Part shown: positions 10,799 through 53,037 of the stretch, one piece after another
Numbering within the stretch: the stretch's first letter is position 1
How the letters are laid out: every line of letters starts with the position of its first letter
DNA from: Bacteroidota bacterium
GTDB lineage: Bacteria; Bacteroidota; Bacteroidia; Cytophagales; UBA9547
Assembly: GCA_041191405.1 (NCBI GenBank)
Contig: JBEEOW010000007.1
Coordinates: 33,484-97,483 of the forward strand
Direction: 5' to 3'
DNA length: 64,000 nucleotides
Position numbers and translations under genes: made by a program
The notes under the pieces: generated by a model
Databases searched by the model: none
What the model saw: only the letters and a program-made list of their open reading frames with translations
What the model was told of the DNA's origin: nothing

Positions 10799-10918
10799 AT
10801 ATCATAGGATTTTCAAAGAAAATCAAAACTTATATGGTTTAAAGAATAAAATTATACTTCATTAAGTACATATAAGAGGATTTATTCTAAATCCGTTATT
10901 ACCATTAAACTATAAAAA

Positions 10919-12134: not shown

Positions 12135-12554
12135 ATGTGGGGGTTGAGTGTAAAAAGTTTGAATTGGTATTTTTTTATAATAACCTTTATAAGTCTATTG
12201 ATTTGTATATTTAGTATTGGTATTGGACTACTATTCTATTTTCTTAGTTATCCATTTTTTATTTTTTTATTCTACAAATCAATGTATAAACTTAGTAAAC
12301 AAACGGAAATTCTTTATCCAGAAATATTCAATAAACATAAAACATTAGATAGAAGTAATAAATACATTATACAAGTTGATAATGATATTTTACTAGGAAA
12401 TAGTTCACTTAGTGAATCTTATAATAGTATTGACAATTTAGAATTAAAAAACTTATTTCATTTCTCAAAAAGATGTTCTTTATTGACTATAATTTCTTTG
12501 CCATTAGGTGTCTTTATAAGTATTATTATTTTTATATTTCAAAGGTATTTATAA
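12135..12554 (+). CDS. small membrane protein, hypothetical
   Basis: Hydrophobic ORF; it is the last gene of the moxR cluster. Confidence 0.35.
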   Translation: MWGLSVKSLNWYFFIITFISLLICIFSIGIGLLFYFLSYPFFIFLFYKSMYKLSKQTEILYPEIFNKHKTLDRSNKYIIQVDNDILLGNSSLSESYNSIDNLELKNLFHFSKRCSLLTIISLPLGVFISIIIFIFQRYL

Positions 12555-12595
12555 AAAAATACCTAACAGGTTTTAAAAACCTGTCAGGTATTTGT
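12553..12595. terminator. bidirectional terminator hairpin (copy 1 of a duplicated element)
   Basis: The sequence aaaaaaa-tacctaacagg-ttttaaaaa-cctgtcaggta-tttg forms an 11-bp stem with one mismatch, flanked by A-runs and T-runs. Confidence 0.6.
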
Positions 12596-12599
12596 AAAA

Positions 12600-15386
12600 T
12601 TACTCTTCAGTTACTACCATTTTTAAGCGGTGAATTTTTTCACTTATTACTTCAACAGTGTACACTCCTGGTGGCAAACTATGATTAATCATTACTGAAG
12701 TTTCAGTGCTTGTTTTTTCTTTAGCAAAAATCAAATTTCCACTAAAGTCATAAATATTAATTTTATCAATTGGATATTTACTTTGAGCAATTGAAACCTT
12801 ACCATCATTTGATGGATTTGGATACAATTTAATTAAATCAGGATTTTCAATTAAATCATTATCCAAATTTGTAAGAATTGATTTAATTTTAAAATATACT
12901 CTGTTTGAAATTTCGTTGTAGGAGTCATTTGTAAAAAACACTACAAAATATTCACCATCTAATTTGGGTACATTATCAGCTTGGAATGTAGCTGTGCCTT
13001 TTGGTAATCCACCTACATAAGCATAATTGATTAAAGGATCAATGTTCGGGTTTGCGTTTTTATTGAAAATCCCAAGCCAGTCTTTTGCTACACCTGGTCC
13101 ATCTTGAAAATCTACAGATATTAAATCTCCTAGATTGTATTCAATTTTATCAGTTTTAATTGTAGCAATTGTATCTCCATAGGAGAAATATAATTTATTA
13201 CCAACACCAGTGTAACCATCTGTTAATAAGTATTGTGCGTAATAATACCCTTTTGTTAATCCTGTAAATTTAAGAGTTCCATTCGTTCCTGTTGTGTAGC
13301 TCCATTTATCAGCAGGCGAACTTGCACCTGGGGTTTTTCCTACTCTATAAATACCTATCCAATCTTTTGCATTTGCGGGTGCATTCGAATAATTTATTTG
13401 TACTGTATCTTTGTTTTTGTAGGTGTTTTTATTTGATGTTAAAACTGGTATTGAACCAACATAAATATTTATTCTTGTTGCTAATTCAGTATAACCATCA
13501 TTTGAAAAATAAGCTATGTAATACTCTCCAGCAGTTGAAACAGTAAAATTAAGTACTCCACTAGCCCCTGTTACATACTTCCAAGTTGTTGAAGTAGTAC
13601 CTGAACCTGGAGTTTGTCCTTTTTTATAAATACCAATCCAATCTTTTAAGTTACCCGAACCATTGGTATAAGTTACTTGAATAGATTCACTGTTAATATA
13701 CTCAATTTTATCTGTAACTATTTTTGGGGTCGAAACTGTACTACCAGTAATAACCAAGGTTTGTACAGTTGACCAAGCCGACCAATTCATGTTTCTATCT
13801 CTATGTCTAACTCTTACATAATGAGTACCATTAGGTATTTCGCCTGAGTTTATTGTGTATTTAAAAATATCAACACCAGCACCAATATCTTTGGTTTTAT
13901 AAACTACCCCATCTTTACCAAATAAATTTTCATAATCTCTTAAAATATCCTTTTCTAAAGTTGAAAATGAATTTGTTTGTGAAATTTGGAATTGAGTAGA
14001 ATTGTAAGGCTCTGATGTTGTAGTGCTATATGTCGAACTTACCAAGGTAAACGGTAATGTGGTACTACTAGGAAATGTGTTTGTAAATGAAGGTGTTGCT
14101 GGAGATGCTTGTCCCGTTTTACGATAAAATTGATCAATTAACCTACTTTCTTCCCAAACAAATTTTGTGGTTGTATTTGTCCAATCATTAATTGAAGTAG
14201 TGTAACCAATTGAATATGATTCTATATTTACAGCATTCGTAACTAAATCAACTTCCATAATTTGGTAATTCCAATTACAAATAGTTTTCTGACAATCATC
14301 GTAATCAGCCTCTGTTGACATACCCCAATATTGGTCCCAAGCCGAACCACCAGAAATGATATTATAAACTGGTTTGTTTTTATCTTGTCCACGAGCATAT
14401 AGATGGTGATGAGCACCAACATTCATCAAATATTTCGATGAAGTAATCAATTTTGGATACATTGTATTTCTGATCCAAGTTGAAACGTCTCCAATATATT
14501 GTTCAGCTTGGTATGGTCTGTGCGCTAAAGAAACAATCCATTTTACATTAGGGTCAACATTGGCAGAATCTAAAACTTTTGCACCCCAAGTATATTGAGC
14601 TGCATTTAAAGTTGAACTTCCTTCTGTTGTGAAATTCATAAATAACACATTTCCAGCTAAAAAAGCATAATATTCTTCTGTACCCGAATTTATACCTTTA
14701 TAATTTATTCCATCATAATGAAAATGATTTTTGTATGCGGTTAAATTTAAAGAGCCATACGTTTCATGATTTCCAACTATTGTTGATATACCAATATATG
14801 GTGAAATTGCTTTTATCTTATTAAAATGTACATTTTCATAATGGTCTAGTGTTCCAACATCTACTTGGTCACCAACCATTACAACCATATCCACTGCCTC
14901 ATTTAACGGAACACCATATTTAGCTTCAACTTTGCGTTTAGCTCTGATTACCAATGAATCATAACGAGGTTCGTTTTTTAATTGGTTATCGCCCATAATT
15001 AAAAAACGCATTTTTTTATTACTTACCTCTGCCCCACCTGGCGAAGGCATGGTTCTAAATGAATAAACTGGAGAAACATACGCTCCAGTTTGTACTTTGT
15101 AATAATACTTGGTATAAGGCTGTAAACCAGTTAAATGTACAGAGTGATAGTAGTAATTGTTACTATAGCCAGCATCTGTCCAGATATTATTTGTACCTGT
15201 GGTTGTTAAATTCAGGTTTGATGAACTTTTACCATAAAGTACTTTACTTTCGGTACCTGATGAAGTTTTCCAGTTTATAAAAACCGAATTTGGTGTCATT
15301 ACCTCGAGGTAAGGCACAGTAGTTTGAGCTTTAAGGCTTGTTAATACTACAAAAAATAGCATTAAACTTAGTAATTTTGCTTTCAT
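12600..15386 (-). CDS. secreted calcineurin-like metallophosphoesterase with repeated beta-sandwich domains and a T9SS C-terminal sorting domain
   Basis: It has a signal peptide and the metallophosphoesterase motifs GDNQ, GDQVD and GNHE. Three ~90-aa repeats contain KDWIGIY. The C-terminus KLYPNPSNDGKVSI...YDFSGNLIF...GVYTVEV matches the Por/T9SS CTD. Confidence 0.75.
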   Translation of the reverse strand: MKAKLLSLMLFFVVLTSLKAQTTVPYLEVMTPNSVFINWKTSSGTESKVLYGKSSSNLNLTTTGTNNIWTDAGYSNNYYYHSVHLTGLQPYTKYYYKVQTGAYVSPVYSFRTMPSPGGAEVSNKKMRFLIMGDNQLKNEPRYDSLVIRAKRKVEAKYGVPLNEAVDMVVMVGDQVDVGTLDHYENVHFNKIKAISPYIGISTIVGNHETYGSLNLTAYKNHFHYDGINYKGINSGTEEYYAFLAGNVLFMNFTTEGSSTLNAAQYTWGAKVLDSANVDPNVKWIVSLAHRPYQAEQYIGDVSTWIRNTMYPKLITSSKYLMNVGAHHHLYARGQDKNKPVYNIISGGSAWDQYWGMSTEADYDDCQKTICNWNYQIMEVDLVTNAVNIESYSIGYTTSINDWTNTTTKFVWEESRLIDQFYRKTGQASPATPSFTNTFPSSTTLPFTLVSSTYSTTTSEPYNSTQFQISQTNSFSTLEKDILRDYENLFGKDGVVYKTKDIGAGVDIFKYTINSGEIPNGTHYVRVRHRDRNMNWSAWSTVQTLVITGSTVSTPKIVTDKIEYINSESIQVTYTNGSGNLKDWIGIYKKGQTPGSGTTSTTWKYVTGASGVLNFTVSTAGEYYIAYFSNDGYTELATRINIYVGSIPVLTSNKNTYKNKDTVQINYSNAPANAKDWIGIYRVGKTPGASSPADKWSYTTGTNGTLKFTGLTKGYYYAQYLLTDGYTGVGNKLYFSYGDTIATIKTDKIEYNLGDLISVDFQDGPGVAKDWLGIFNKNANPNIDPLINYAYVGGLPKGTATFQADNVPKLDGEYFVVFFTNDSYNEISNRVYFKIKSILTNLDNDLIENPDLIKLYPNPSNDGKVSIAQSKYPIDKINIYDFSGNLIFAKEKTSTETSVMINHSLPPGVYTVEVISEKIHRLKMVVTEE

Positions 15387-15632: not shown

Positions 15633-15672
15633 AAAAAATTACCTAACAGGTTTTTAAAACCTGTCAGGTTTG
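15633..15672. terminator. terminator hairpin (copy 2, near-identical to 12553-12595)
   Basis: The sequence aaaaaaa-ttacctaacagg-tttttaaaa-cctgtcaggtt-tg lies downstream of the minus-strand gene 15683..16738. Confidence 0.6.
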
Positions 15673-22156: not shown

Positions 22157-22262
22157 ATTTTTAGTTAAGAGTTTAGTGTTCAGAAGTTAAGAGTTTTCGA
22201 GTTAAGATTTTAAAATTTTTGTAAACTATAAACCCTAAACTCTATACTCTTAACTCTAAACT
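22157..22262. repeat. inverted array of gttaaga(g)tt-type heptamer repeats forming a long imperfect hairpin
   Basis: The left arm reads gttaagagtttag...gttaagagttttcgagttaagatttt and the right arm reads aaccctaaactctatactcttaactctaaact. It sits between the chorismate-enzyme stop and the tex start. Confidence 0.6.
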
Positions 22263-23443
22263 ATTAATTTCAATAAAGCATTTGCTTTGAGTAAACATTC
22301 TTCATATTCGTGTTCGGCATTTGCACCAGCAGTGATTGCCGAACCAACTTTTATACTTAAATATCCCGTTTTTGCATTATAACAAAAAGCTCTAATTACT
22401 ACATTTAAAGTAAAATCATTATCATTTCCATAACCAACAGTGCCAGAGTATAATTGTCGCTCAAAAGGCTCGAATTGAGCACTTATTTCAATAGCATTTT
22501 TCTTTGGTGCACCTGTCATACTTCCCATTGGAAATGTTGCTTCAAGAATGGTTTTTACATCTGTATCATTTTGAACATTTCCACTTATGGTAGAAATCAT
22601 TTGATGTACATTTTTGAAGGAATAAATACCAAAAAGTTCATCCACTTTTACTTGATTACAGATAGTTGATAAATCATTTCTAACCAAATCAACAACCATT
22701 ACATTTTCGTTTTGCTCTTTTGAATCATTACGTAATTGATTGATTATCTTTTGGTCAGCTACTGTATCAATACCTCGAGGTGCGGTACCTTTGATTGGTT
22801 TTGAATACAATTTTGAGCCTTGTTTTTCGAGAAATAATTCTGGCGAAGCACAAAGCAAATAACTATCATTATGCTTTACAAAACAAGAATATGGCGCTTG
22901 GTTATTAATGATTATTTTTTGCCATAAATCCAATACTGAAACTTTAACATTATCAGCACAAAGTTCTATACAATAATTAGTTATATAAATATCACCTCTT
23001 AAAATATGAGATTTTATTTTATCAAAATTATGAATATATTCTTGTTTTGAAATACTTGGTTTTAATTGAATTGAAGATTTTTCAGAAGATTCTTTAAGTT
23101 CTAAACCAATAATTTCATTATAAACTTGATTGGTGTTAATACCTTGAATTTCAATATTATTGACATTGATTTGTTTAATTGAAACTTGAGGTAAAAAGAA
23201 ATATTCATCTTCAAAATCAAATTTCATATCAGCATTTCCTTGTAAAGGATAGCATTTATATCCAGCCCAATTGTGTTGAGGTTTGGTTAGTTTGTTTTCA
23301 ATATTACCAATTGCCAAATAATTAACAAAACCTTTATGGTCATCCGTTGAATTACAGGTAAATACAACTATTTGAGCGTTATTCGCCCATTGAATAGCTT
23401 TCTCCCAAAAATTTTCTGTATATGGAAATTGAATTGTTTGCAA
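22256..23443 (-). CDS. chorismate-binding enzyme, aminodeoxychorismate/anthranilate synthase component I family (PabB-like)
   Basis: The C-terminal chorismate-binding motifs MGSMTGAPKKNAIEI and GYLSIKVGSAITAGANAE are present. The TGAPK motif favours the TrpE/PabB branch over isochorismate synthase. Confidence 0.7.
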   Translation of the reverse strand: MQTIQFPYTENFWEKAIQWANNAQIVVFTCNSTDDHKGFVNYLAIGNIENKLTKPQHNWAGYKCYPLQGNADMKFDFEDEYFFLPQVSIKQINVNNIEIQGINTNQVYNEIIGLELKESSEKSSIQLKPSISKQEYIHNFDKIKSHILRGDIYITNYCIELCADNVKVSVLDLWQKIIINNQAPYSCFVKHNDSYLLCASPELFLEKQGSKLYSKPIKGTAPRGIDTVADQKIINQLRNDSKEQNENVMVVDLVRNDLSTICNQVKVDELFGIYSFKNVHQMISTISGNVQNDTDVKTILEATFPMGSMTGAPKKNAIEISAQFEPFERQLYSGTVGYGNDNDFTLNVVIRAFCYNAKTGYLSIKVGSAITAGANAEHEYEECLLKANALLKLIV

Positions 23444-25509: not shown

Positions 25510-25580
25510 TTATTTAATTTGATTAAATGATGTAAAGTAAACATTAGAGGATTCATACTGAACCCTTTAATACTAATAAT

Positions 25581-26651
25581 TTATTCTTCTTTTAAGAAAT
25601 AAGTTTTATAAAAATACATTCCTTTTTCTTCATCGTAACCACGTTCTATTAAATCATGGCGACCATGTAAGTATATGTGAAAGTTTTTATCAAGCTTTAA
25701 GATACTTTTAAATACTTTTTGTGCTTTTTTTACAGCCTTTTCTGAAATATCAAATTCGTCAAAAGAAGTAATTTCATTGTTATTGAAGAATGTAGTTTTG
25801 TAATCTTTAAATGCCTCAATGATAATAGGTTCTTGCAAAGCTTCCTCCTCAAATTCTTGTTTGTTAAACACTTCTTTTGAAGTAAAATAATTCATTGCAT
25901 TTTCTTTGATTTTTAGCACTTCATTTCTTGGTGCATCTATCACAGTATCAATGTATTCTTCGCAAAAAGTATTACACATATCCAAATAGTTTTTGGTATG
26001 GTAAAACTTATCTTCACGAGGTTTTACATTCAAAAAATTATTCATCCAATATTGGGCTTCACTTCCTTTATTGGTGTTATCAATTATCATTAATTTGTAA
26101 CCTTGCTCCTTTTCAGTGTTAAAAATCAAACAACCTTTATCTAATTTATTGATACTCACCCCAGCATCTGATGATATTCCTACATTGCTTTTTTCGTGGT
26201 AAATTTTCAAATACGAATCCTTATTTTCAGATTTAAATAAACCAACAGCATCGCAAAGTTCATCATCAATTACACAATCTTTAAACTGAACAATATAAAA
26301 TTCTCCACCTTTTACTTTTGGATGATCGCTTTTATCATAAAGTAATTTTGCAAGTGCCTGACTTTGAAGTAAAAAATCATCTTCATGTTCAAAAATATGA
26401 TTTACATGATGCATAACTTCATTCAAAGCAATATCAGTTTCATGTTGAAAAACATACAAACTTTGGTCTTTAAATGAATGTAAAAAATACTGTTTTAGCA
26501 ACAAAGGCAATAAATCATCTTCAAGGTAAAGTTCGTTTTGAGATAGAATTAAATCTTGGTCTTGCGAGGAATTATCAACATAATGTACAGCTACTTTTCC
26601 TAAAACAGTTGAAGTATTATCAAGCATAAGTGAAATATTTATGAAATACAA
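25581..26651 (-). CDS. nucleoid-associated protein NdpA/YejK-like (tentative)
   Basis: The length and general sequence character match the family. There is no sharp motif, so the call is moderate. Confidence 0.45.
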   Translation of the reverse strand: MYFINISLMLDNTSTVLGKVAVHYVDNSSQDQDLILSQNELYLEDDLLPLLLKQYFLHSFKDQSLYVFQHETDIALNEVMHHVNHIFEHEDDFLLQSQALAKLLYDKSDHPKVKGGEFYIVQFKDCVIDDELCDAVGLFKSENKDSYLKIYHEKSNVGISSDAGVSINKLDKGCLIFNTEKEQGYKLMIIDNTNKGSEAQYWMNNFLNVKPREDKFYHTKNYLDMCNTFCEEYIDTVIDAPRNEVLKIKENAMNYFTSKEVFNKQEFEEEALQEPIIIEAFKDYKTTFFNNNEITSFDEFDISEKAVKKAQKVFKSILKLDKNFHIYLHGRHDLIERGYDEEKGMYFYKTYFLKEE

Positions 26652-28980: not shown

Positions 28981-30291
28981 ATGGCTTTATTATTTACTTC
29001 AGAATCAGTGTCGGAAGGACACCCAGATAAAGTAGCCGATCAAATTTCGGATGCACTATTAGATGCACATTTAGCACAAGATCCACAATCTCGTTTTGCT
29101 TGTGAAACATTGGTAACTACAGGTTTAGTTGTGGTTGCTGGTGAAATCACTACTAAAGCAAATGTTGATGTACAAGCAGTTGTACGTGCAACAATCAACA
29201 AAATTGGTTATACCAAAGCTGAATATATGTTTGAAGCTGAGTCATGTGGTATCATGAATGCACTTCATGCACAATCACCTGATATTGCACAAGGTGTAAA
29301 CGAAGGCGAAGGTTTGGATAAAGAGCAAGGTGCTGGTGACCAAGGTATGATGTTTGGTTATGCATCAACTGAAACTCCTGAGTATATGCCAATGGCTTTA
29401 GCGTTTTCTCACAGATTAGTGAAAAAAATGTCTGAAATCAGAAAAGAAGGTAAAATAATGACATACCTTCGTCCAGATACAAAATCACAAGTTACAATAG
29501 AGTACGACGAAGCTGGTAAAGCAAAAAGAGTTGATACTATTGTAATTTCTACACAACATGATGATTTTGTAAAACCAACTAACAATAGCAAAGAAGCTAA
29601 ATTAGTAGCCGACAATGCAATGTTAGATGTTATCAAAGCTGATATTTTAGCAAATGTAATTCCTGCAGTAATCCCAGCTGAGTTATTAGATGCTAACACA
29701 AAATATTTTATTAACCCAACAGGCGTATTCGTAATTGGTGGTCCACATGGTGATTCTGGCTTAACAGGTAGAAAAATTATTGTTGATACTTACGGTGGAA
29801 AAGGTGCTCACGGTGGTGGTGCATTCTCTGGTAAAGACCCATCAAAAGTGGACCGTTCGGCAGCTTATGCAGCACGTCACGTAGCTAAAAACTTAGTTGC
29901 AGCGGGTGTTTGTACCGAAGCTTTAGTACAAGTTGCTTATGCAATTGGTATTGCTAAACCAGTTTCTATCAATGTAAATACTTATGGTACAGCAGTAAAT
30001 GGCTTATCTGATGCTAAAATTGCTGATGCTGTAAATAAAGTATTTGATATGAGACCAAAAGCTATTGTTGAAAGATTTGGATTAAAAAATCCAATTTATT
30101 CAGAAACAGCAGCTTACGGACACATGGGTAGAGAAAGCTACGAAAAAGAAATTGATGTAAACTATGTTACTGTTTCTGAAAACAATGGCGTAGTTACTGA
30201 AACTCGTACAGCATCTAAGAAAAAAGTAACTTTCTTCGGATGGGAGAAACTTGATTATGTTGATGCAATTAAGAAAGAATTAGGTATTTAG
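28981..30291 (+). CDS. metK: S-adenosylmethionine synthetase
   Basis: Motifs [33 protein letters not shown] and [16 protein letters not shown] are present. Confidence 0.95.
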
Positions 30292-30340
30292 TATTTAGTA
30301 TTTAGTATTTAGTACAAAGTATTAAGTATTAAGAAAAGAG
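30285..30340. repeat. 7-bp tandem repeat (tatttag)x5 - tacaaag - (tattaag)x2
   Basis: Seen directly in the sequence. It starts in the last codons of metK. A nearly identical module lies at 50401-50437. Confidence 0.7.
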
Positions 30341-38957: not shown

Positions 38958-41900
38958 CTATTCCACCACAATAGGAAAATCCTGACCTCGTGAGAAGGTG
39001 TATGGGAATTGAAGTTTACCGCTGTATTTATTGTTTAACTCTGGCACTTGGTCGTCGAGGTAAGATTTTAATTCATAAATAGTTACCTTGCCATCTTTAG
39101 GCGAACCATCGGCTTTGCCCGACATGGCATCGAGCAACACATAAGTAAATAATCCATGTTTCAATGTTGAAAGTTCTTTGGCATTTTGCTCGCTTCCCGC
39201 CGATGCCAACACATGTATTCCTGCACTTCGTGAAAGTTGTGCCAAGGCTTTTTCCTCCATCGAACCTCGCATTGCCAACAACTCTACCGAACCTCCTGAT
39301 TGACAAGCATCCATGATAATTATCTGCTTCAATGCTTTTATTTGTTTAAAAATCTCTTGCATTTCGGTAGCTGAAATGGCTGCTTTTGAAAGTCTGCCAT
39401 CATCAAACAAACGTGGGCAATCGCTTGGTATAAAATAAAATTTATTGTCGCTCATGCTTCCATGTCCAGCATAATAAAACACAAAAACATCGTGCGAAGA
39501 GGTGTGTTTTGCCAATGCATTGAGTGTATCAAGTATGTTTTGTTTCGTTGCTTGTTCATCAAAAATGGTATGTATTTTCATGGAAGTGTATAAAGCTCCT
39601 TTGTGTTTTTGTAAAGAATCTACAAAAGATTGGGCATCTTCATGTGCAAAATTCAGTGTCAAATTTGGGTTTTTATATTTGTTAATTCCAATTGCCAACA
39701 CATGGCAAACTATTTTATTATCAGCATTTTCTGCAAAATAGGCTGCACCAACAGGCGACGATTCAACCCTACCTTTGCTATAACCTGTAACCTCCAACTT
39801 ATTATGTCCACGAACCAAATTAACTGATTGATTGATAACAATGAAACTGTCTTTTTCCTGAGGGAAAATAATTTTTGAATGGTCAATTGGCAATAATTTC
39901 CCATTGTGACTTAGTTTTATTTCATCAATACCTCCACCAGAATTTATAATTTTAATTCTCAAATCCGCCGTTTGTCCGTCGGGTTTTACATTCAAGGCAG
40001 TTCTAATAATTGGCGGAGGCGAGGTATTTAACTTATCATTCATCGAAGGCATTTTGTTGGCTCCACCCCTATTTTTAAACAAACTTGGCAACAAGTCCGG
40101 ACGATAATATTCTTCAAAAAATTGGTCGGGAGCATAAACTTCCATGCCTTTTACAAAGTTTATTGCACTGCGAGCCATAGTAGTTGCGTTGAAATATCCA
40201 TCCTTTGTATGTGCCATCCATTCATTTTCGCCAAGGTGTAAATGTTCGTAAAACTCTACGCCTTTTTCAAGGTTCCAGCATTTAATAGCACCATCTAAAC
40301 TATAGGAAATCAACAACTTATTATCATTACTAATTTTAAGTGAAGTAATTTCTGATTGATGTCCTTCAAGTGTTTGAATTAATTTCCCAGAGTTTGCATC
40401 CCAAATCCTAATGATTCTATCTGCTCCAGCGGTGATAACTTTTTTATCGTCTTTGGTAAAAATTGCTGCATGAATAGCCCCTTCGTGACCTTTGAATTTT
40501 TGCAACATAATTCCTGTTGAAATATCCCAAATTCGTGCAGTTCCATCCCATGAGGCACTCAACATTTTGTATTTATCCAAACCAAAACTTACCGCCGACA
40601 CTATATCTGTATGTCCTAAAAATGAGCGAACTACGTTTTTACTATCTGGTTCAATCAATTGCAAGGTTTTATCAAGTTTTGCTACCACCAAATACAAACT
40701 ACTTGGCAAAAACGCAATACTATATCCTGAATAATTATTTAAATCAATGTCGGATATTTTTTTACCAGTAGATAAATTCCATAAAATAATACTTCCATCC
40801 CATGAGGAAGTAGCCACAGTTTCTCCATCTGGACTTAATTTAACATCGAAAATTGGTTCTCTGTGACCTTTAAATGTTTTCAGTTTTTTACCCGTTTCCA
40901 TTTCCCACAACATTGCTTCTCCACTTGCATCAGCGGTTACAAGTAGCTTATTATCAACACTAATATCAAAACAAATTACTGCTTTTTCGTGCCCTGTAAA
41001 TGCAGTTTCTGGTTTGCCCGAAGCAATATTCCATTTAATAGCTTTTCGAGCAATTTTGCCTGTTATAAAAAACTTGTCATCTTTACTTAAGGCAATTAAA
41101 TTCTTGTATCTTAAATATTTAGCAATATTTGATTGCCAATAATTATCAGGGTCATAATCGAGCCCTCCATTATCTTGACCATTTAAAATTCCACTTAATT
41201 TACCAATCACTTTTCCGTTTAAAGCATTATAAATCAATGCAATATTTTTATTGCAAGCTGTAATTATACTATTGCCATCAATGCTATAAATTGCTTCATT
41301 TACACTTCCTGCTGCTGTATCTGATTTAAAAGTTTGAATTAACTTATTGGTAGTCAAATCATATTGCGAAACAAAATCAGCAACTAGCAACAGTTTTTTG
41401 CCATCAGCACTAAAATTCAGACCTTGTAATTTATCAACTTCGGCACCAAATTTTAATTTTTCTTTTCCTGTTAAAACATCAAAAAGTCTTAAGGTATCAT
41501 TATGAGATAATTTTGCAAGATACTTATTATCAGCACTAAACTCAACCAAAGTACCACAGCCACCACACCAACCTTCTGCTGGAGCAATTGTATGTAACAA
41601 AGAAAAATCACTTGTTTTATAAATTTTTGCAGTTTTATTGTCTTCACCAATAGCAAGTAATTTACTATCGTTACTAAATGCAAGGCTAATTCCGTAGCCC
41701 GAACCTTGGTCAGCATTGGTAGCAATTTTGGTTATTAAAGTCCAATTTGAAGTATTATACACCTCCGCTGAATCACTATAACCAGCTAAAATTAAATACT
41801 TTGCATCAGGCGAAAAAGCGACATCGGTTACATATTTATTTTGTTCAGGTGATGAAAAAACTAATTTCCCTGAATTTACAAGCCAAACTTTCACTGTATT

Positions 41901-42188
41901 ATCAGCACTTGAAGACGCTATATATTTCCCATCTTTACTCCACGACAAACCATTAACTGTGGAAGTATGCCCCAACAAACTTCTAATTTGAGCACCTGTA
42001 CTTGCATCCCAAATAATAATACTTTTGTCTCTACTTCCTGTTGCAAAGTATTTACCATCAGTACTAGTAGCAATTGCTTTTACAGCCGCTGAATGTCCTT
42101 TTTGAATAACAGTTTCAAGTTTGTTTTGTGCAAAGCTTGCAAATGTGATAAGGATTAAAAATATTGGTAAAATGTGTTTTAATTTCAT
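38958..42188 (-). CDS. secreted WD40-repeat (two beta-propellers) protein with C-terminal caspase-like (peptidase C14) domain
   Basis: It has a signal peptide ending SFAQ and about 14 WD-like repeats (for example GHTSTVNGLSWSKDGKYIASSSADNTVKVW). The C-terminal domain carries the caspase His/Cys dyad contexts YYAGHGS and IIMDACQSGG. Confidence 0.8.
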   Translation of the reverse strand: MKLKHILPIFLILITFASFAQNKLETVIQKGHSAAVKAIATSTDGKYFATGSRDKSIIIWDASTGAQIRSLLGHTSTVNGLSWSKDGKYIASSSADNTVKVWLVNSGKLVFSSPEQNKYVTDVAFSPDAKYLILAGYSDSAEVYNTSNWTLITKIATNADQGSGYGISLAFSNDSKLLAIGEDNKTAKIYKTSDFSLLHTIAPAEGWCGGCGTLVEFSADNKYLAKLSHNDTLRLFDVLTGKEKLKFGAEVDKLQGLNFSADGKKLLLVADFVSQYDLTTNKLIQTFKSDTAAGSVNEAIYSIDGNSIITACNKNIALIYNALNGKVIGKLSGILNGQDNGGLDYDPDNYWQSNIAKYLRYKNLIALSKDDKFFITGKIARKAIKWNIASGKPETAFTGHEKAVICFDISVDNKLLVTADASGEAMLWEMETGKKLKTFKGHREPIFDVKLSPDGETVATSSWDGSIILWNLSTGKKISDIDLNNYSGYSIAFLPSSLYLVVAKLDKTLQLIEPDSKNVVRSFLGHTDIVSAVSFGLDKYKMLSASWDGTARIWDISTGIMLQKFKGHEGAIHAAIFTKDDKKVITAGADRIIRIWDANSGKLIQTLEGHQSEITSLKISNDNKLLISYSLDGAIKCWNLEKGVEFYEHLHLGENEWMAHTKDGYFNATTMARSAINFVKGMEVYAPDQFFEEYYRPDLLPSLFKNRGGANKMPSMNDKLNTSPPPIIRTALNVKPDGQTADLRIKIINSGGGIDEIKLSHNGKLLPIDHSKIIFPQEKDSFIVINQSVNLVRGHNKLEVTGYSKGRVESSPVGAAYFAENADNKIVCHVLAIGINKYKNPNLTLNFAHEDAQSFVDSLQKHKGALYTSMKIHTIFDEQATKQNILDTLNALAKHTSSHDVFVFYYAGHGSMSDNKFYFIPSDCPRLFDDGRLSKAAISATEMQEIFKQIKALKQIIIMDACQSGGSVELLAMRGSMEEKALAQLSRSAGIHVLASAGSEQNAKELSTLKHGLFTYVLLDAMSGKADGSPKDGKVTIYELKSYLDDQVPELNNKYSGKLQFPYTFSRGQDFPIVVE

Positions 42189-42878: not shown

Positions 42879-42975
42879 TAGTTGAGAGTTAAGAGTTAAG
42901 AGTTGAGAGTTAAGAGTTGAGAGTTGAGAGTTGAGAGTTTAAACAAAAACTCTTAACCCTCAACTCTTAACCCTC
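42879..42975. repeat. eight tandem gttgaga/gttaaga heptamers followed by inverted complement units (aactcttaaccctc x2)
   Basis: Seen directly in the sequence. It forms a long imperfect hairpin and exactly fills the hisIE-PAP2 intergenic space. Confidence 0.7.
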
Positions 42976-42977
42976 TA

Positions 42978-43583
42978 CTATTTATGTCTTGCTTTTAATA
43001 CTTCTAACACCTCATCAAGCGTGTAATTTTTAGCTTCTAATAAAACCAAGTAATGGAATAACAAATCAGCAGCTTCACCAAGGAATAGCTCTTTGTTGTC
43101 ATCTTTAGCTTCTATTACCAATTCTACGGCTTCCTCTCCTACTTTTTGAGCAACTTTGTTAATTCCTTTGTGAAATAAACTTGAAGTATATGACGATTCT
43201 GGAGAAGCTGCTTTACGTTGTTTAACAACCTCTTTTAATTGATTAATAAACAATGTATTATCAACTTTGTTTGGTTCATTAAAACAAGTATCAGCACCAG
43301 TGTGACATACGGGACCAACTGGTTCAGCTTTAATTAAAACAGTATCTTTGTCGCAGTCAACAATGATATTTTTAACCATCAAAAAATTGTTTGATGTTTC
43401 ACCTTTGGTCCACAAACGATTTTTTGTTCTACTAAAAAATGTAACCTTACCTTCAGCAACAGTTTTTTCTAATGCTACTTTATTCATAAACCCAACCATT
43501 AGCACTTTAGATGTTTGAACATCTTGCACTACTGCTGGGATTAAACCACCTTGTTTTTCGAAATCAATCTCTGCTATATTCAT
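42978..43583 (-). CDS. hisIE: bifunctional phosphoribosyl-AMP cyclohydrolase / phosphoribosyl-ATP pyrophosphatase
   Basis: The HisI part matches GGLIPAVVQDVQTSKVLMVGFMN...CHTG, and the HisE part matches the C-terminus (LFLGEAADLLFHYLVLL). Confidence 0.85.
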   Translation of the reverse strand: MNIAEIDFEKQGGLIPAVVQDVQTSKVLMVGFMNKVALEKTVAEGKVTFFSRTKNRLWTKGETSNNFLMVKNIIVDCDKDTVLIKAEPVGPVCHTGADTCFNEPNKVDNTLFINQLKEVVKQRKAASPESSYTSSLFHKGINKVAQKVGEEAVELVIEAKDDNKELFLGEAADLLFHYLVLLEAKNYTLDEVLEVLKARHK

Positions 43584-44792: not shown

Positions 44793-45734
44793 TTATTCTT
44801 GCGAAGCAAGGTATCTTTCAGCATCTAAAGCTGCCATACAGCCAGTTCCTGCGGCAGTAATTGCTTGTCTGTAAACGTGGTCTTGAACATCTCCACAAGC
44901 AAAAACGCCTTCTACATTTGTTTTTGAACTATCAGGTTTAGTGATGATATAACCACTTTCGTCCATATCAATTACACCTTTAAATATATCAGAATTTGGT
45001 TTGTGACCAATAGCTACAAAGAAACCAGTTACCGCTTTTTGAGTTATTTCACCTGTTCGAACATTTTTTACAGTAAATCCGTCAACACCATCTTTACCTA
45101 AAATTTCTTGTGTTTCTGATTCCCATAAAATTTCAATTTTAGGATTGTTCATTACACGTTTTTGCATAATTACCGAAGCTCTCATTTGACCTTCTGGCTT
45201 ACGCACAATCATATACACTTTATTACAAAGATTTGCTAAATAAGTAGCTTCTTCACAAGCTGTATCACCAGCTCCAACAATGGCAACATCTTGATTTCTA
45301 TAGAAAAAACCGTCGCAAACAGCACAAGCCGAAACGCCCATACCATTCAAACGTGTTTCTGATTCTAAACCTAACCATTTTGCAGATGCACCTGTCGAAA
45401 TAATTACAGTATCAGCCTCAATAACTGTGGTTTCGTCAATAGTAACTTTTTTGTTTTTAGGGTCTGAAAAATCCACTGAAGTTGCTATACCTATGCGAAT
45501 ATCAGCACCAAAACGTTTAGCTTGCTCTTCAAATTGAACCATCATTTCTGGACCAGTAACTCCTTCTGGGTAGCCAGGGAAATTCTCTACATCATTAGTC
45601 ATAGTAAGCTGACCACCAGGTTGTGGACCTGTATATAAAACTGGTTTTAAACCAGCTCTTGATGCATAAATTGCCGCTGTATATCCCGCAGGACCTGATC
45701 CAATAATTAAACAATGTACTTTTTCTGCTGACAT
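44793..45734 (-). CDS. trxB: thioredoxin-disulfide reductase
   Basis: It has the FAD motif GSGPAGYTAA, the redox centre CAVCDG and the NADPH motif GAGDTA. Confidence 0.9.
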   Translation of the reverse strand: MSAEKVHCLIIGSGPAGYTAAIYASRAGLKPVLYTGPQPGGQLTMTNDVENFPGYPEGVTGPEMMVQFEEQAKRFGADIRIGIATSVDFSDPKNKKVTIDETTVIEADTVIISTGASAKWLGLESETRLNGMGVSACAVCDGFFYRNQDVAIVGAGDTACEEATYLANLCNKVYMIVRKPEGQMRASVIMQKRVMNNPKIEILWESETQEILGKDGVDGFTVKNVRTGEITQKAVTGFFVAIGHKPNSDIFKGVIDMDESGYIITKPDSSKTNVEGVFACGDVQDHVYRQAITAAGTGCMAALDAERYLASQE

Positions 45735-45931
45735 AATATTTCTAGTTTATCTATTCTCAAAATTGATATTACAAAAATGGTTAATCAATGCCTTAAACAC
45801 AAATTATATGGCATTGATTATTTTTATTTCAAGATAAAAATTATTGATAGTTTTCTTCAAGACTTAGGATGAATGACATAAGACTTTGTAATAAAATATT
45901 ATTAATTGAGATGTAGATGAGCGGTGGGCAA

Positions 45932-46058
45932 AAAATCCTTGGATATGGCATCATGATTGTAAATCAGGACGAGCACGATAATCATACTACAAAAAGGTTC
46001 GGAGAACCTAATTTATCTACTGTTCGAGATGCGCTTCGCTAACATCTCGAACAGCAAG
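45932..46058 (+). repeat. R1 repeat copy a (~127 bp) ending in a 12-bp-stem hairpin plus T-run
   Basis: It is about 90% identical to 46853-46979. The hairpin ctgttcgagatg-cgcttcgctaa-catctcgaacag at 46020-46054 is followed by agattttatt. Confidence 0.65.
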
Positions 46059-46065
46059 ATTTTAT

Positions 46066-46169
46066 TAGTTTTTGTTCTTAATTTTTAAGGGAAGGTGTCG
46101 ATGAGCGGTCGTTTATCTAGTTTTTGTTGTTAATTTTTAAGAGAAGATGTGGAAGAGCGGACAATATCT
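46066..46169. repeat. 52-bp tandem duplication (2 units)
   Basis: The units are tagtttttgttcttaatttttaagggaaggtgtcgatgagcggtcg and tagtttttgttgttaatttttaagagaagatgtggaagagcggaca. A related gatgtagatgagcggtgggc sits at 45903. Confidence 0.55.
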
Positions 46170-46594
46170 TAAATTTTAACACCTATAGTAATTAGATGGA
46201 GTATATTATTTAATTTTTTTACATTATTAACTTTTAATATGTGATATTCAGATTGGGTCATTTGCCAACTCTGAATTTTGGAAATTTCTTTAATTAAGAA
46301 ATCTGACCATAAGCTACTTTTTGAAAAATAAAAAAATAACTTTTCAGGTTCATTTAAAATATCATATTCATCTTTAGGGAAAGGTTCTTCCCAATTGTCA
46401 AAATAATCTGGCACATCCCTAATTATTTCAATATAATTTTCAAAAATAGATTTGCTCAAAGTTTTTAATTGCTCGTTATCAATTGATATTATTATCTGAA
46501 TTTTTACCTTAGAATTAACTCTTTCATTGTCTGACCAAGTAAATTCGTCATAACTCAATTTATTAAACCCTAATGATAAATTTTCTATTCTCAT
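46169..46594 (-). CDS. hypothetical small acidic cytoplasmic protein (141 aa)
   Basis: Intact ORF flanked by repeat elements. It has no motif. Confidence 0.4.
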   Translation of the reverse strand: MRIENLSLGFNKLSYDEFTWSDNERVNSKVKIQIIISIDNEQLKTLSKSIFENYIEIIRDVPDYFDNWEEPFPKDEYDILNEPEKLFFYFSKSSLWSDFLIKEISKIQSWQMTQSEYHILKVNNVKKLNNILHLITIGVKI

Positions 46595-46705
46595 TATGTA
46601 TTTCGCACTTATTAATGTTATGCACTGTAGCTACCCTTGTTATTCTTATGACCAACAAGCCACTATATTTTATATCTTACTCCAATCTGAGTAATGACAT
46701 AAAAT

Positions 46706-46818
46706 TTCCGCTACTCGACTTCTTCCCTAACCACTTACACAACTGCAAGATAGTGTGGCTATTCGATATTTGCAATGTCGAATCAGTATCAGTGGATTTG
46801 CAATCCACATAAACAGTT
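46706..46818. repeat. R2 repeat copy a (~110 bp)
   Basis: It matches 47811-47916, apart from a 12-bp indel and a few substitutions. Confidence 0.6.
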
Positions 46819-46852
46819 GTTAAAAAAACATTTTGCTAACTATTTAGGATTG

Positions 46853-46979
46853 AAAATCCTTAGATATAGCATCCAGATTGCAAATCATTACGAGCACGAT
46901 AATCATACTACAAAAAGGTTCAGAGAACCTAATTTATCTACAGTTCGAGATGCGCTTCGCTAACATCTCGAACAGCAAG
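46853..46979 (+). repeat. R1 repeat copy b, hairpin plus ttttttt
   Basis: It is a direct repeat of 45932-46058. Its terminator-like hairpin lies at 46942-46975 and is followed by a T7 run. Confidence 0.65.
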
Positions 46980-47089
46980 TTTTTTTGAATCTATTATATT
47001 CAGTCGTTGCACTTACTACAGCTAAACCTGCTTGTACAAAGGAACTTGCCCTGCAAAGTTCACTGTTATTTTCTTTCCCATTAAAGTAT

Positions 47090-47602
47090 TCAGCGGTCTT
47101 GCCCCCTAATTTTATTGAAATTCAATACTAAATAAAGAGGAACTTTTCTTTTTATAAATTCATTCCCTCGTCTTATTCTGATTACCCCATCGCCTAAATA
47201 CATTACATTCAAACTTAGGTTAAAACATTTATATTGTCCTTCTTTAGTGCTCAATATAGATGTCTCGTATTTTTCCAAAACCGAATGAAGAGAATCATTT
47301 ATACCAATACTAAAGTATTTTATTGATTTACTATTTTGTTCATTAATACATTGTTTGGGCACTTCTAATCCATATTCAAAGGCATAAAAACCTTCCTTAT
47401 AAGCAATACTATCATTTTGTATAACAAATAAAGAAGCCCTTCTATATATCATATCATCTTCAGACCATAAATCATTTGACCATTCAAAAGCAAAATCCCC
47501 TTCTATATGTTTTACATCACATATCTTCAAGTCTTGACCATAGGTTTTTAAGCTAATAAAAACAAACAGTATATATATATACTTGCTACTTAATTTTAAC
47601 AT
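47090..47602 (-). CDS. secreted hypothetical protein (170 aa, signal peptide)
   Basis: It has a signal peptide ending TYGQ. Its ATG overlaps the last five codons of the metalloprotease remnant. Confidence 0.45.
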   Translation of the reverse strand: MLKLSSKYIYILFVFISLKTYGQDLKICDVKHIEGDFAFEWSNDLWSEDDMIYRRASLFVIQNDSIAYKEGFYAFEYGLEVPKQCINEQNSKSIKYFSIGINDSLHSVLEKYETSILSTKEGQYKCFNLSLNVMYLGDGVIRIRRGNEFIKRKVPLYLVLNFNKIRGQDR

Positions 47603-47849
47603 TTTTTAAGTTTGTATTAATTATATCAATATTATTCTTCTTTGTAGGTCTAATTATACCCTGTTTATTGCTCATCATCCCGTCTTGGCTATAATCGTCT
47701 TTTGCATGATTAAGACCAAAGTTATGTCCCATCTCATGTGCAACTAAGTCTTTCTCATCAGCTCCATGCTCGGCTACATTTATATCTATAGGGTTCTTTC
47801 CAAAAACTTCATCATTTCCGCTCCTCGAGTTCTTCCCTAACCACTTACA
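47586..47849 (-). pseudogene. start-less C-terminal remnant of an HExxHxxGxxH zinc metalloprotease (metzincin-like)
   Basis: The translation is CKWLGKNSRSGNDEVFGKNPIDINVAEHGADEKDLVAHEMGHNFGLNHAKDDYSQDG...NVKIK*. There is no start codon upstream of the HExxH motif, and the reading frame opens inside repeat R2b. Confidence 0.55.
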
Positions 47850-47916
47850 CTACTGCAAGATAGTGTAGCTATTCGATATTTACAATGTCGAATATTTGCA
47901 ATCCACATAAACAGTT
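47811..47916. repeat. R2 repeat copy b
   Basis: It is a direct repeat of 46706-46818. On the minus strand its end encodes CKWLGK(N/K)S(R/S)SGN in frame with the metalloprotease remnant. Confidence 0.6.
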
Positions 47917-47995
47917 TTTAATTAAACCATTTATTTATTCATTTAAACATTCAAAAAATCAATTAATACATTAATTTTAATGAAAATTTTAACTT

Positions 47996-48679
47996 ATGAA
48001 AAATTTAGTAGTTCTAACAGGTGCAGGTATAAGTGCCGAAAGTGGCATAAAAACTTTTAGAGATTCTGACGGATTATGGGAAGGACACGATGTAATGGAA
48101 GTGGCTACTCCTCAAGGTTTTGCGAAGAACCCTGCGTTGGTTTTAGAGTTTTATAACCAACGTAGAAAACAAGCTCTTGAAGTAAAACCAAATGGTGGTC
48201 ACATAGGTTTGAAAGACTTAGAAAAACATTTTAATGTATCAATCATTACCCAAAATGTAGATTCATTACACGAACATGCAGGTTCAAAAAATGTACTTCA
48301 TTTACATGGAAAATTAGACGAAAGTAGAAGTACTAAAAACCCTGATTTAGTGTATAAATTAAATTCTTGGGAGCTTAACTTAGGAGATAAATGTGAATTA
48401 GGTTCTCAACTTCGCCCAAATATAGTATGGTTTGGTGAGGCGGTTCCAGCCATTGAGGGTGCAATAGAAATTGTAGCCAAAGCTGATATTTTCGTCATAA
48501 TTGGTACATCATTAGTTGTTTACCCAGCCGCAAGTTTGATTGATTATGTTCCTAAAAAAGTGCCAGTTTATGTAATTGACCCAAATAAACCCTCACTTAC
48601 AAATATCAAACACAATATAACTTTTATTGAAGAAATGGCTAGTGTTGGGGTGGAAAAATTAAAGGGTTTGATAATATAA
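47996..48679 (+). CDS. NAD-dependent protein deacylase, Sir2 family (CobB-like)
   Basis: It has the Sir2 motifs GAGISAESGIKTFRD, QNVDSLH and an HG in LHLHGKL. The Zn-ribbon region has only one conserved Cys, which matches the short bacterial CobB forms. It is 227 aa. Confidence 0.85.
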   Translation: MKNLVVLTGAGISAESGIKTFRDSDGLWEGHDVMEVATPQGFAKNPALVLEFYNQRRKQALEVKPNGGHIGLKDLEKHFNVSIITQNVDSLHEHAGSKNVLHLHGKLDESRSTKNPDLVYKLNSWELNLGDKCELGSQLRPNIVWFGEAVPAIEGAIEIVAKADIFVIIGTSLVVYPAASLIDYVPKKVPVYVIDPNKPSLTNIKHNITFIEEMASVGVEKLKGLII

Positions 48680-50394: not shown

Positions 50395-50400
50395 TTTTTT

Positions 50401-50480
50401 AGTATTAGGTATTAGGTACTAAGTACAAAGTATTTGAAAAATAAAATCTTAAGTCTAATGTCTATAATCTTAAGTCTAAA
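50401..50480. repeat. heptamer repeat module (gtattag x2, gtactaa, gtacaaa, gtatttg) followed by the atcttaagtctaa module x2
   Basis: It shares agtacaaagtatt with the metK locus and atcttaagtctaa with the 1535-1590 locus. Confidence 0.65.
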
Positions 50481-52062: not shown

Positions 52063-52248
52063 TGAATGCTATATAAATTTTGACATTTTTTTTTGAATTG
52101 GAATTAATAATTTCTAATTCAAAATTTATTAATTATTTAACCAAATAGGAACATAGTTTCTTGAAAATATAAATCAAATTTCTAAGTTCTTATGTGTTTA
52201 ATTTTAAATTACACTTAAGTGGATTTATTCTAAATCCTTTAGTGCTAA

Positions 52249-53037
52249 TTATTTAAAAGGAACATTTTGATTTCCTTCTTTCATAATATTAGGAGTTGCA
52301 AATGAACCAACTACGTTAGCTTTTAATGAAATTTTAGCATACTTAGTTACAATATCATTAGAAGTTATAGAAACCACTTCTTCTATTTCTCCAAGGTTTT
52401 TAGGGGTATAAATTAATTCTAAAATTACAGTTTCTTTTGGTTTAATAGTTTCTTTTGAAATTTTGTATTCAATACAACCACAACCTGCCAAAATAGCGTT
52501 ATTCAAAGGAATCTTCAAGTCGCTCATTCCTGTGTTTGTGATTTTAAACTTATAATTAACACGTTGACCTTTTTCAATTTTACCAAAATTGTAACTTACT
52601 TTATCTACAGTTAATCTTGGAGAAGCTTTTATTTCAGCAGCTGTGTATTTATTTTCTTCTTTTTTCTCAACAATACCTCTGATATAGATAGTTTTATTAG
52701 TTTCGTTTGTTGCATTTGAAACAACAGCAATACTTTTATTGAATACACCTAATCTACCTTGACTATTGTAAGATGCTTTGATTAAACCTGTTTTTCCAGG
52801 CATAATTGGCTCTTTACTCCACTCAGGAGTAGTACATCCGCATGAAGGTTGAACAGATGAAATAACCAATGGAGCTGAACCAGTGTTGGTTACTTCAAAA
52901 GTAAATGATGCTTGTACACCTTCTTCAACAATTCCAAAATCGTGGCTTTCTGTTTTGAATTTAATTGTTTGAGCAATAGAATTATATCCTAAAAATAAGG
53001 ACATTACAGCTAGGGCACTTATTCTTTTATAGTTCAT
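52249..53037 (-). CDS. DUF1573 domain protein (two copies), secreted
   Basis: It has a signal peptide and two modules with the characteristic PSCGCTTPEW / AGCGCIEYK cysteine pair. Confidence 0.7.
   Translation of the reverse strand: MNYKRISALAVMSLFLGYNSIAQTIKFKTESHDFGIVEEGVQASFTFEVTNTGSAPLVISSVQPSCGCTTPEWSKEPIMPGKTGLIKASYNSQGRLGVFNKSIAVVSNATNETNKTIYIRGIVEKKEENKYTAAEIKASPRLTVDKVSYNFGKIEKGQRVNYKFKITNTGMSDLKIPLNNAILAGCGCIEYKISKETIKPKETVILELIYTPKNLGEIEEVVSITSNDIVTKYAKISLKANVVGSFATPNIMKEGNQNVPFK

Follow-up and report, generated by a model that had tools for sequence, protein, structure and literature searches.

A two-cassette islet between trxB and a Sir2 gene in an environmental Bacteroidota genome is probably an orphan interbacterial-immunity array with one inactive toxin remnant

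Orphan immunity arrays decide which bacteria survive contact-dependent toxin attack and have been worked out mainly in gut Bacteroidales and Proteobacteria. In this study, we analysed a 64,000-nt stretch of contig JBEEOW010000007.1 (this whole stretch is called the window hereafter) from a metagenome-assembled genome (MAG) of an uncultured freshwater-type or environmental Bacteroidota. The subject is the interval between trxB and a Sir2 gene, referred to as the islet, whose open reading frames (ORFs) are deposited under the locus tags RLZZ175_1105-1108 (proteins MEY5047746-49), "hypothetical protein". The islet is probably an orphan interbacterial-immunity array of two cassettes with one dead toxin remnant, inserted between the two genes. 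This reading draws on the repeats that frame each cassette, on the homology of the remnant to toxins, on the pairing of toxin and immunity genes in other loci, on a terminator motif in one of the repeats, and on cassette polymorphism among strains, in a 64-kb window that has no recombinase gene.

The islet is flanked by trxB (Pfam Pyr_redox_2, 7e-48) and the Sir2 gene (6e-42). Between them lie two units arranged head to tail, each composed of a repeat called R2, a cargo, and a repeat called R1 (Table 1). Order and orientation are the same in both units, and the cargos are unrelated. Read on the minus strand, the order is Sir2<, R2b, toxin remnant, ORF170, R1b, an 18-bp spacer, R2a, ORF141, two 52-bp units, R1a, about 50 bp, the trxB upstream region, and trxB>. 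Cassette 2, on the Sir2 side, contains the toxin remnant and ORF170; cassette 1, on the trxB side, contains ORF141. According to the repeat finders, the R1 copies span 132 nt with 92% identity. The R2 copies span approximately 120-130 nt, with 80 nt at 94% identity, then a 12-nt indel, and then 39 nt at 87%. The inter-cassette module of approximately 280 bp consists of R1b, the spacer, and R2a. An earlier note on this DNA had reported R1, R2, a 52-bp tandem duplication, two small ORFs, and a start-less HExxH remnant; a reading of positions 45400-48400 and the repeat finders placed all of them at the same positions or within a few bases. The stop codon of the remnant does overlap the start of the 170-aa ORF, as that note had described.

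The frame of the remnant reads LQ-stop-CKWLGKNSRSGNDEVFG...HEMGHNFGLNH...KIK-stop (elsewhere cited as ...LQ-stop-CKWLGKNSRSGNDEVFGKNPIDINVAEHGADEKDLVAHEMGHNFGLNH...KIK-stop), and no start codon precedes the motif. The zinc-binding motif HEMGHNFGLNH is followed by a Met-turn-like GMMSN, the combination by which a metzincin is recognized. Pfam matched only generic metzincin signatures around HExxHxxGxxH, namely Reprolysin_4 (8e-7; 29.3 bits against a cut-off of 22) and, more weakly, Astacin and Matrixin. A word-indexed search of 5.8 billion proteins, with the R2 peptide and the remnant as the query, returned its own 48-aa ORF as the sole match. An exhaustive HMMER search of 1.84 billion representative proteins yielded 14 relatives of the remnant, of which the longer ones are P0012 (309 aa), P0013 (321 aa), P0015 (282 aa), P0016 (406 aa), P0018 (354 aa), and P0021 (311 aa). 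Residues 11-86 of the remnant match the extreme C-terminal ~75 residues of these longer relatives with 45-61% identity, and H266, E267, H270, G273, and H276 are invariant across the alignment of the toxin family (A2). The Rhs-associated core TIGR03696 occupies the N-terminus of P0012, P0013, P0016, and P0021 (36-58 bits; curated cut-off, 32.5). A profile search of the PDB with the family likened its N-terminus to the core ends of Rhs/TccC/SGS structures and its C-terminus to the active-site helices of ADAM, ADAMTS, and MMP proteins. Given the HMMER relatives, the TIGR03696 core in four of them, and the PDB profile matches, the remnant is the tail of a ~230-aa C-terminal (CT) domain of an Rhs-type polymorphic toxin. 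It retains the zinc-binding helix and the Met-turn-like GMMSN. It is dead, because the N-terminal two thirds of the domain and the start codon are missing. No specific Pfam or NCBIfam family matched the toxin domain. The Tox-MPTase models gave no match at E <= 0.1 in seven full-length relatives or at E <= 1 in the remnant, with the presence of a Tox-MPTase1 model in Pfam not established.

The upstream half of the islet has a single exact Bacteroidetes-type -7 box, TAACTTTG, which is located inside the remnant at 47717-47724 on the minus strand. The conserved H-N-F-G codons make up this sequence, which lies ~115 nt upstream of the ORF170 start and has a TTG 19 nt upstream. This box could be an internal promoter of the immunity gene, which might account for the retention of that part of the toxin.

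The function of ORF170 is suggested by its neighbourhood in other loci. Locus L017 is an array that consists of an 82-aa gene, an Rhs-core fragment with an unrelated CT (336 aa), a 285-aa gene, an Rhs-core fragment with the metzincin-like CT (P0013), and a 176-aa gene. The start of the 176-aa gene overlaps the toxin stop, and its product shares 25% identity with ORF170 across 167 residues. In L018, an ORF170-like gene that runs off the contig end comes after toxin P0012, and in L032 a 176-aa ORF170 homolog comes after toxin P0016. A toxin with an intact domain is therefore adjacent to an ORF170 homolog in three independent loci. In a fourth, L013, a 35-aa toxin-tail remnant, shorter than that of the window, precedes P0003, which is 55% identical to ORF170. 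P0002, with 80% identity to ORF170, stands alone after surE in two further loci (L011 and L012). Because its homologs lie directly downstream of the toxin in three loci and of a tail remnant in the fourth, ORF170 is the putative cognate immunity protein of the metzincin-like toxin.

The N-terminus of ORF170 resembles a signal peptide, with a charged start, the hydrophobic core IYILFVFISL, and then TYG/QD, as read from the sequence. A signal-peptide-like N-terminal segment and the motif DDMI(Y/F)R are common to all ORF170 homologs. ORF170 is hence predicted to be exported, so the toxin would act in the cell envelope or periplasm. ORF170 ceases to match its relatives at approximately 47103, 3-4 codons short of its stop codon. 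ORF170 belongs to no Pfam or NCBIfam family.

ORF141 and its six homologs make up a family of seven sequences with 51-62% identity. In L020, the homolog P0011 starts 5 nt after a gene that ends in ...GGSKVRGNATSISDLDVGFDG...YSPSGYISIDALGNIQLGK-stop. The product of this upstream gene looks nucleotidyltransferase-like, judging from a G-S...D-x-D motif that was read by eye rather than with a hidden Markov model. In L016 and in Flavobacterium oreochromis (L014 and L015), 16-19 residues of the L020 toxin tail persist as a remnant upstream of the ORF141 homologs; the neighbours in F. oreochromis include IS110 and a RAYT-like fragment. Because the homologs follow the nucleotidyltransferase-like gene or a surviving tail of it, ORF141 is most plausibly a second orphan immunity gene, the partner of a nucleotidyltransferase-like toxin. 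Neither ORF141 nor the neighbours of the ORF141 and ORF170 homologs in other loci fell into a Pfam or NCBIfam family. The AlphaFold (AF2) model of ORF141, with a predicted local distance difference test (pLDDT) score of 79, had no fold match in the PDB at E < 0.3, and a protein-based scan of species-representative genomes with the ORF141 family found no relatives.

Some loci with related cassettes also carry traces of mobile elements. RAYT/IS200-like genes, recognized by eye, accompany related orphan cassettes in two unrelated organisms (L024, 1-6300; L014, 1-262); Pfam found no such family in the L014 fragment. In L024, a GC-rich repeat (translated ...NLRRVCPAPASSRCWTTLRPRSRTH...) occurs three times between cassettes, and P0019, a frameshifted metzincin-like CT, is also present. 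Downstream of the P0016 pair in L032, positions 2043-2531 are a frameshifted integrase-like sequence (...FGCTTGLRSSDL...), for which Pfam Phage_integrase reached only E 0.018 with stitched frames.

The two repeats have sharp boundaries. The right end of R2 (...AGCGGAAAT) is identical in three contexts: next to the toxin remnant (R2b), next to the ORF141 leader (R2a), and next to the trxB upstream region in contig L004. The left end of R1 (CTTGCTGTTCGAG) does not vary among four cargo contexts, which include the ORF170 3' flank, the 52-bp units, and the 69-aa ORF of contig L003. On the minus strand, which is the sense strand of the cassette genes, R1 folds as a row of hairpins, with z-scores of -5.5 (R1a) and -3.7 (R1b). 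One is a 12-14-bp hairpin with the loop TTAGCGAAGCG. R1 also contains an intrinsic-terminator-like GGTTCTC(C/T)GAACC followed by T5; terminator-like sites in the interval are confined to R1 (four found against 0.7 expected). A 23-nt motif, TTAGGGAAGnnGTCGAnnAGCGG, has four matches in the window against zero expected. Two of these are minus-strand matches, one at the cargo-proximal end of each R2 copy; the other two are plus-strand matches, each of which ends a 52-bp unit, so that ORF141 is flanked by inverted copies. Cassette 2 retains no more than CAGCGG at the corresponding right-hand position, where the homology of ORF170 to its relatives also stops. A weak inverted similarity links the 5' part of R2 with the 3' end of R1 (39 nt, 74% complementary; nhmmer E 0.004).

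Other assignments were also considered for these sequences. R1 as a plus-strand small RNA gene was rejected on the grounds that it folds better on the minus strand. A spurious 41-aa ORF inside R1 was found at this locus only in an exact look-up, with no cluster variants. Rfam, at gathering thresholds for the window and at E <= 10 for the islet, gave only chance-level matches to eukaryotic small nucleolar and long non-coding RNAs, and no transfer RNA or transfer-messenger RNA was found. For extended similarity to R2, neither the A3 region (45890-45925) nor the sequence downstream of ORF170 scored above shuffled sequences.

Table 1. Positions of the repeats, motifs, and genes of the islet within the 64,000-nt window.
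Feature	Position	Strand	Description
R2b	47814..47932	-	5' repeat of cassette 2, non-coding; adjoins the truncated toxin remnant
23-nt motif TTAGGGAAGAACTCGAGGAGCGG	47818..47840	-	Cargo-proximal end of R2b
Start-less toxin remnant	47586..47816	-	Last ~75 aa of an Rhs-type toxin CT domain; Reprolysin_4, HMMER relatives
ORF170	47090..47602	-	170 aa; start overlaps remnant stop; putative cognate immunity protein, predicted exported
R1b	46853..46984	-	3' multi-hairpin repeat of cassette 2; candidate intrinsic terminator 46930-46916
Spacer	46835..46852	.	18 bp separating R1b from R2a
R2a	46704..46834	-	Upstream repeat of cassette 1
23-nt motif	46708..46730	-	Cargo-proximal end of R2a; left arm of the inverted pair around ORF141
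ORF141	46169..46594	-	141 aa; putative second orphan immunity gene; nucleotidyltransferase-like toxin absent here
Two 52-bp tandem units	46061..46160	+	1.9 copies, 87%; inverted 23-nt motif ends each (46086-46108, 46138-46160); right arm(s) around ORF141
R1a	45932..46063	-	Downstream repeat of cassette 1; candidate terminator 46009-45995
10-nt AATGACATAA	45872..45881, again 46693-46702	+	No third copy in the window; bounds the ~821 bp missing from L004, which comprise ORF141, the tandem units, and R1a

The earlier note had proposed a comparison of related strains for cassette gain or loss, and such differences were found: contigs that encode a 100%-identical TrxB protein differ in their content upstream of trxB. 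Contigs L001 and L002 have the arrangement of the window, with ORF141 present. In L009, the ORF170 3' flank is joined to an R1a-type R1 and the ORF141 cassette is absent, an arrangement explicable by homologous recombination between R1a and R1b. In L003 and L008, R1 is preceded by a different small ORF (69 aa), and the big hairpin has its loop inverted. In L004, R2 is joined directly to the trxB upstream region, and the 821 bp that are missing relative to the window are bounded by the window's only two copies of AATGACATAA. L010 has rearranged modules, with one 52-bp-type unit, the 3' half of R1 only, and a hairpin that has another stem and the same loop. Contigs with an identical Sir2 all have the ORF170 cassette. 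The locus is a hot spot of cassette turnover in the population.

Two of these contigs provide a closer view of the R1 hairpin. In L003 (240-272, compared with 46020-46052 of the window), the stem is unchanged and the loop is CGCTTCGCTAA instead of TTAGCGAAGCG. In L010 (1-45), the same loop sits on an unrelated stem (TTAGCGTAGCG). The GCGAAGC-type mini-hairpin, which is present in the R1 loop, is very stable in single-stranded DNA.

If the islet is an orphan immunity array, the cell most likely keeps the immunity genes to survive toxins delivered by neighbouring bacteria, and those toxins would not be self-made. ORF170 would neutralise a metzincin-like toxin that acts in the periplasm or envelope, and ORF141 would neutralise a nucleotidyltransferase-like toxin. 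R2, upstream of each cassette, may supply a transcription start or leader; this role of R2 is a guess. R1, downstream of each cassette, would serve as a multi-hairpin element with a terminator motif that ends one cassette before the next begins. The conserved R1 and R2 frames could give the homology, or possibly the sites, for gain, loss, and swap of cassettes.

Several points weigh against this reading. Protection by ORF170 and ORF141, and the expression of both genes, are predictions from sequence. The array has only two cassettes, and the R1 and R2 copies come from a single lineage. No toxin remnant is recognizable upstream of ORF141 in the window, and the structure model of ORF170 is unusable (pLDDT 49). 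R2 as RNA is not significantly structured (R2b z-score, -0.9), and it contains no exact Bacteroidetes -7 box (TAnnTTTG), the best candidate being TATCTTGC. The GC content of the islet (27-35%) is not distinct from that of the flanks (28-38%). As for the exchange mechanism, Pfam annotation of all ORFs >= 100 aa in the 64 kb revealed ordinary housekeeping genes and type IX secretion system (T9SS) cargo, and no recombinase (including Phage_integrase), transposase, Rhs, VgrG/Hcp, or other type VI secretion system (T6SS) gene. Finally, no further copy of R1 or R2 was found in the rest of the window, in 62 kb of related loci, or in exact-pattern scans of genome, metagenome, and viral collections. 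In these scans, R2 had 0 matches in genome_contigs; R1 had 0 in metagenome_contigs, a collection evidently without the source samples, and 0 in viral_contigs, where the 23-nt motif had one chance match in a high-GC coding region. Within the 64 kb, nhmmer profiles built from three copies per repeat matched only the two known sites of R1 and the two of R2. A phage or plasmid origin of the islet was rejected; BLAST of the islet against plasmids and phages gave no match.

Other explanations concern the nature of the repeats. The earlier note had read R2 as the 3' end of the in-frame constant part of a parent toxin, into which CT modules are swapped. In the frame of the remnant, translation of either R2 copy gives ...CKWLGK(K/N)S(S/R)SGN; the R2b frame runs on into the remnant, and the R2a frame reads ...CKWLGKKSSSGN and then eight codons and a stop, just as that note had said. 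However, the R2b frame is interrupted by a TAA 6 codons and a TAG 17 codons upstream of CKWLG, and the R2a frame is open for just 43 codons. The relatives carry toxin-domain residues ahead of NDEVFG, where the window has the R2 peptide CKWLGK..., and HMMER aligned the remnant only from residue ~10, right after the R2-encoded peptide. The real constant region of the toxin family is the Rhs core, to which R2 has no similarity. The 5.8-billion-protein search gave only the self match, and neither word-based protein search, exact-pattern genome scan, nor nhmmer found a longer gene that carries R2. On account of the stops, the short R2a frame, the toxin-domain residues of the relatives, and the Rhs core as the true constant region, R2 is a non-coding repeat that adjoins the truncation point, and the shared codons are simply the same repeat beside two cargos. 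A coding junction at R2 is already contradicted, and we give it next to no credence. Of the orphan toxin-CT/immunity layout suggested by the earlier note, the toxin and immunity parts thus stand, through the Rhs-core relatives, the ORF170 pairing, and ORF141 as an orphan immunity gene, and the part in which R2 joins CT modules does not. It is also improbable that R1 and R2 are the remains of a non-autonomous element, either a miniature inverted-repeat transposable element (MITE) or an insertion sequence (IS) fragment, which landed in an older orphan array, truncated the toxin, and was later duplicated with no role in the cassettes. The likeness of the R2 5' part and the R1 3' end (39 nt, 74%; E 0.004) is reminiscent of terminal inverted repeats, R2b lies exactly at the truncation point of the toxin, short metagenome contigs from several assemblies end inside R1, and related cassettes of other organisms have IS110, RAYT, and further IS genes nearby. 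MITE hallmarks are terminal inverted repeats, target-site duplication, and many dispersed copies. Yet each repeat has two copies, all within the islet, with none elsewhere in the 64 kb or the scanned collections. No target-site duplications were found around the R2...R1 units, the sequence beyond R2b does not hold the 5' part that the toxin gene has lost, and random insertion does not predict the same order and orientation of R2, cargo, and R1 around unrelated cargos.

Alternatively, each R2-cargo-R1 unit may be a mobile cassette that is moved by site-specific or single-strand (HUH/tyrosine) recombination, with the enzyme encoded elsewhere in the genome, so that the islet would be an integron-like platform for the capture of immunity genes. 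We consider this unlikely. Recombination would take place at the outer inverted repeats, at the hairpin whose loop TTAGCG(A/T)AGCG is conserved, and at the 23-nt ...AGCGG motifs in inverted orientation. The sharp repeat boundaries across three to four cargo contexts, the inverted motifs around ORF141, and the inverted relation of the R2 5' part to the R1 3' end are consistent with such sites, as are the inverted R1 loop in L003, the same loop on an unrelated stem in L010, and the two 10-mer copies that bound the segment missing in L004. Mobile-element genes occur near related cassettes (RAYT-like in L014 and L024, an integrase-like fragment in L032), and rAID-1 is a precedent for recombinase-associated immunity arrays. 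Nevertheless, the 64 kb contain no recombinase or transposase gene, the scanned collections contain no further R1 or R2 copy, and cassette 2 lacks a good right-hand 23-nt motif. The cargo edges cut inside the toxin and the last codons of ORF170, which resembles illegitimate or homologous recombination rather than clean excision, and L009 is accounted for by an R1a-R1b crossover. Were it true, the islet would represent a previously undescribed immunity-gene capture system of environmental Bacteroidota, a counterpart of rAID and integrons whose recombinase acts in trans from a distant locus, here inserted at a hot spot close to trxB.

A few features of the window lie outside the islet. Intergenic tandem heptamer tracts of 6-9 units (AAATCTT, TAAACTC, GTATTTA, AGTTGAG, and others) are located at 1534-1584, 22222-22267, 30274-30333, 42880-42979, and 50398-50473. 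The 22.2-kb and 42.9-kb tracts are mutually inverted, and 42898-42982 is also hairpin-forming; these tracts could be a lineage-specific class of intergenic repeats. A 37-nt hairpin element, AAAAAAATACCTAACAGGTTTTAAAAACCTGTCAGGT, has 95% identical copies at 12553-12589 and 15633-15669, on either side of a gene for a 928-aa T9SS-cargo phosphoesterase (12600-15386). A 52-nt intergenic repeat with three copies (10864-10915, 25535-25586, and 52207-52258) contains the hairpin GGATTTATTCTAAATCC and looks like a dispersed terminator or a family similar to repetitive extragenic palindromic (REP) elements. According to precomputed Pfam matches, a 1076-aa protein rich in WD40/beta-propeller repeats is encoded at 38958-42188, among housekeeping genes and 3 kb from the islet.

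As an orphan immunity array, the islet extends the phenomenon of orphan immunity to an uncultured environmental Bacteroidota lineage, and it does not overturn the current understanding. Its value lies in the leads it offers. One is a metzincin-like Rhs toxin domain with a conserved, predicted-exported immunity protein; the 2012 catalogue assigned no immunity family to metallopeptidase toxin domains (PMC3482391). Another is a second immunity family, the ORF141-like proteins, tied to a putative nucleotidyltransferase-like toxin. The toxin domain and both immunity families have no specific Pfam or NCBIfam family, so the earlier suggestion of an undescribed toxin/immunity family holds. The last is a compact frame of promoter-like and terminator-like repeats with strain turnover and no adjacent recombinase, which could show how such arrays grow and shrink.

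Known toxin and immunity systems resemble single parts of the islet. Orphan rhs-CT/immunity modules (PMC3482391), of which L017 is an example, share with it a CT family that follows an Rhs core, an immunity gene directly downstream with stop/start overlap, and a truncated toxin. Classic rhs orphans keep a core-coding piece, which provides homology for a swap into the main rhs gene, and lie beside a full-length rhs gene (PMC3482391). In contrast, the islet remnant has neither the core nor the N-terminal two thirds of the toxin domain, the window has no rhs gene, and the repeats (R2 and R1) are non-coding. The zincin-like metallopeptidase domains Tox-MPTase1-5 on Rhs toxins were catalogued in 2012, including in Bacteroidetes, without an assigned immunity family (Zhang et al., 2012, PMC3482391). 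They are likewise C-terminal HExxH metallopeptidase domains on Rhs-repeat toxins; the islet toxin family differs in its extended HExxHxxGxxH with a Met-turn-like GLMSN and in its conserved, predicted-exported immunity partner. As reported by Wood et al. (2019, PMC6899460), the C-terminal zinc-metallopeptidase of Pseudomonas aeruginosa VgrG2b is an antibacterial toxin in the periplasm that is neutralised by a periplasmic immunity protein. The same periplasmic logic may apply to the metzincin-like CT and ORF170, although the likeness is one of logic rather than sequence, and the VgrG spike carrier, in place of Rhs, and the phylum differ.

Integron cassettes are also comparable in that promoter-less cargo of one orientation is followed each time by a structured, imperfectly palindromic element, and in that the content varies by strain. 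Unlike integrons, the islet has no IntI or attI, and its cargo is enclosed between two elements, R2 and R1; no GTTRRRY-type core was recognized and Rfam returned nothing, with no dedicated attC model run. The closest described system appears to be the rAID-type orphan immunity array. rAID-1 consists of a tyrosine recombinase and co-oriented short orphan immunity genes, with conserved intergenic motifs and low GC (bioRxiv 10.1101/471110; PMC12247911). The islet shares co-oriented short immunity genes (141 and 170 codons, both on the minus strand, two only), which are orphans by gene-neighbourhood evidence, a toxin-gene remnant, signs of gain and loss among strains, and a Bacteroidota host. It also has repeated intergenic sequences between cassettes, R1 and R2, which are likened to those of rAID-1 by their presence and not by motif sequence. 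It differs in the absence of a XerD-like tyrosine recombinase at the array head or among the annotated window ORFs, in its two cassettes, in having no GC skew, and in an environmental MAG host rather than gut Bacteroidales. Furthermore, the toxins to which its immunity genes correspond are of the Rhs-CT type, and no T6SS link is known here. Because the recombinase and the low GC of rAID-1 are both lacking, we do not file the islet as rAID-1. The islet would rather be a known kind of interbacterial defence island in an unusual, recombinase-less package.

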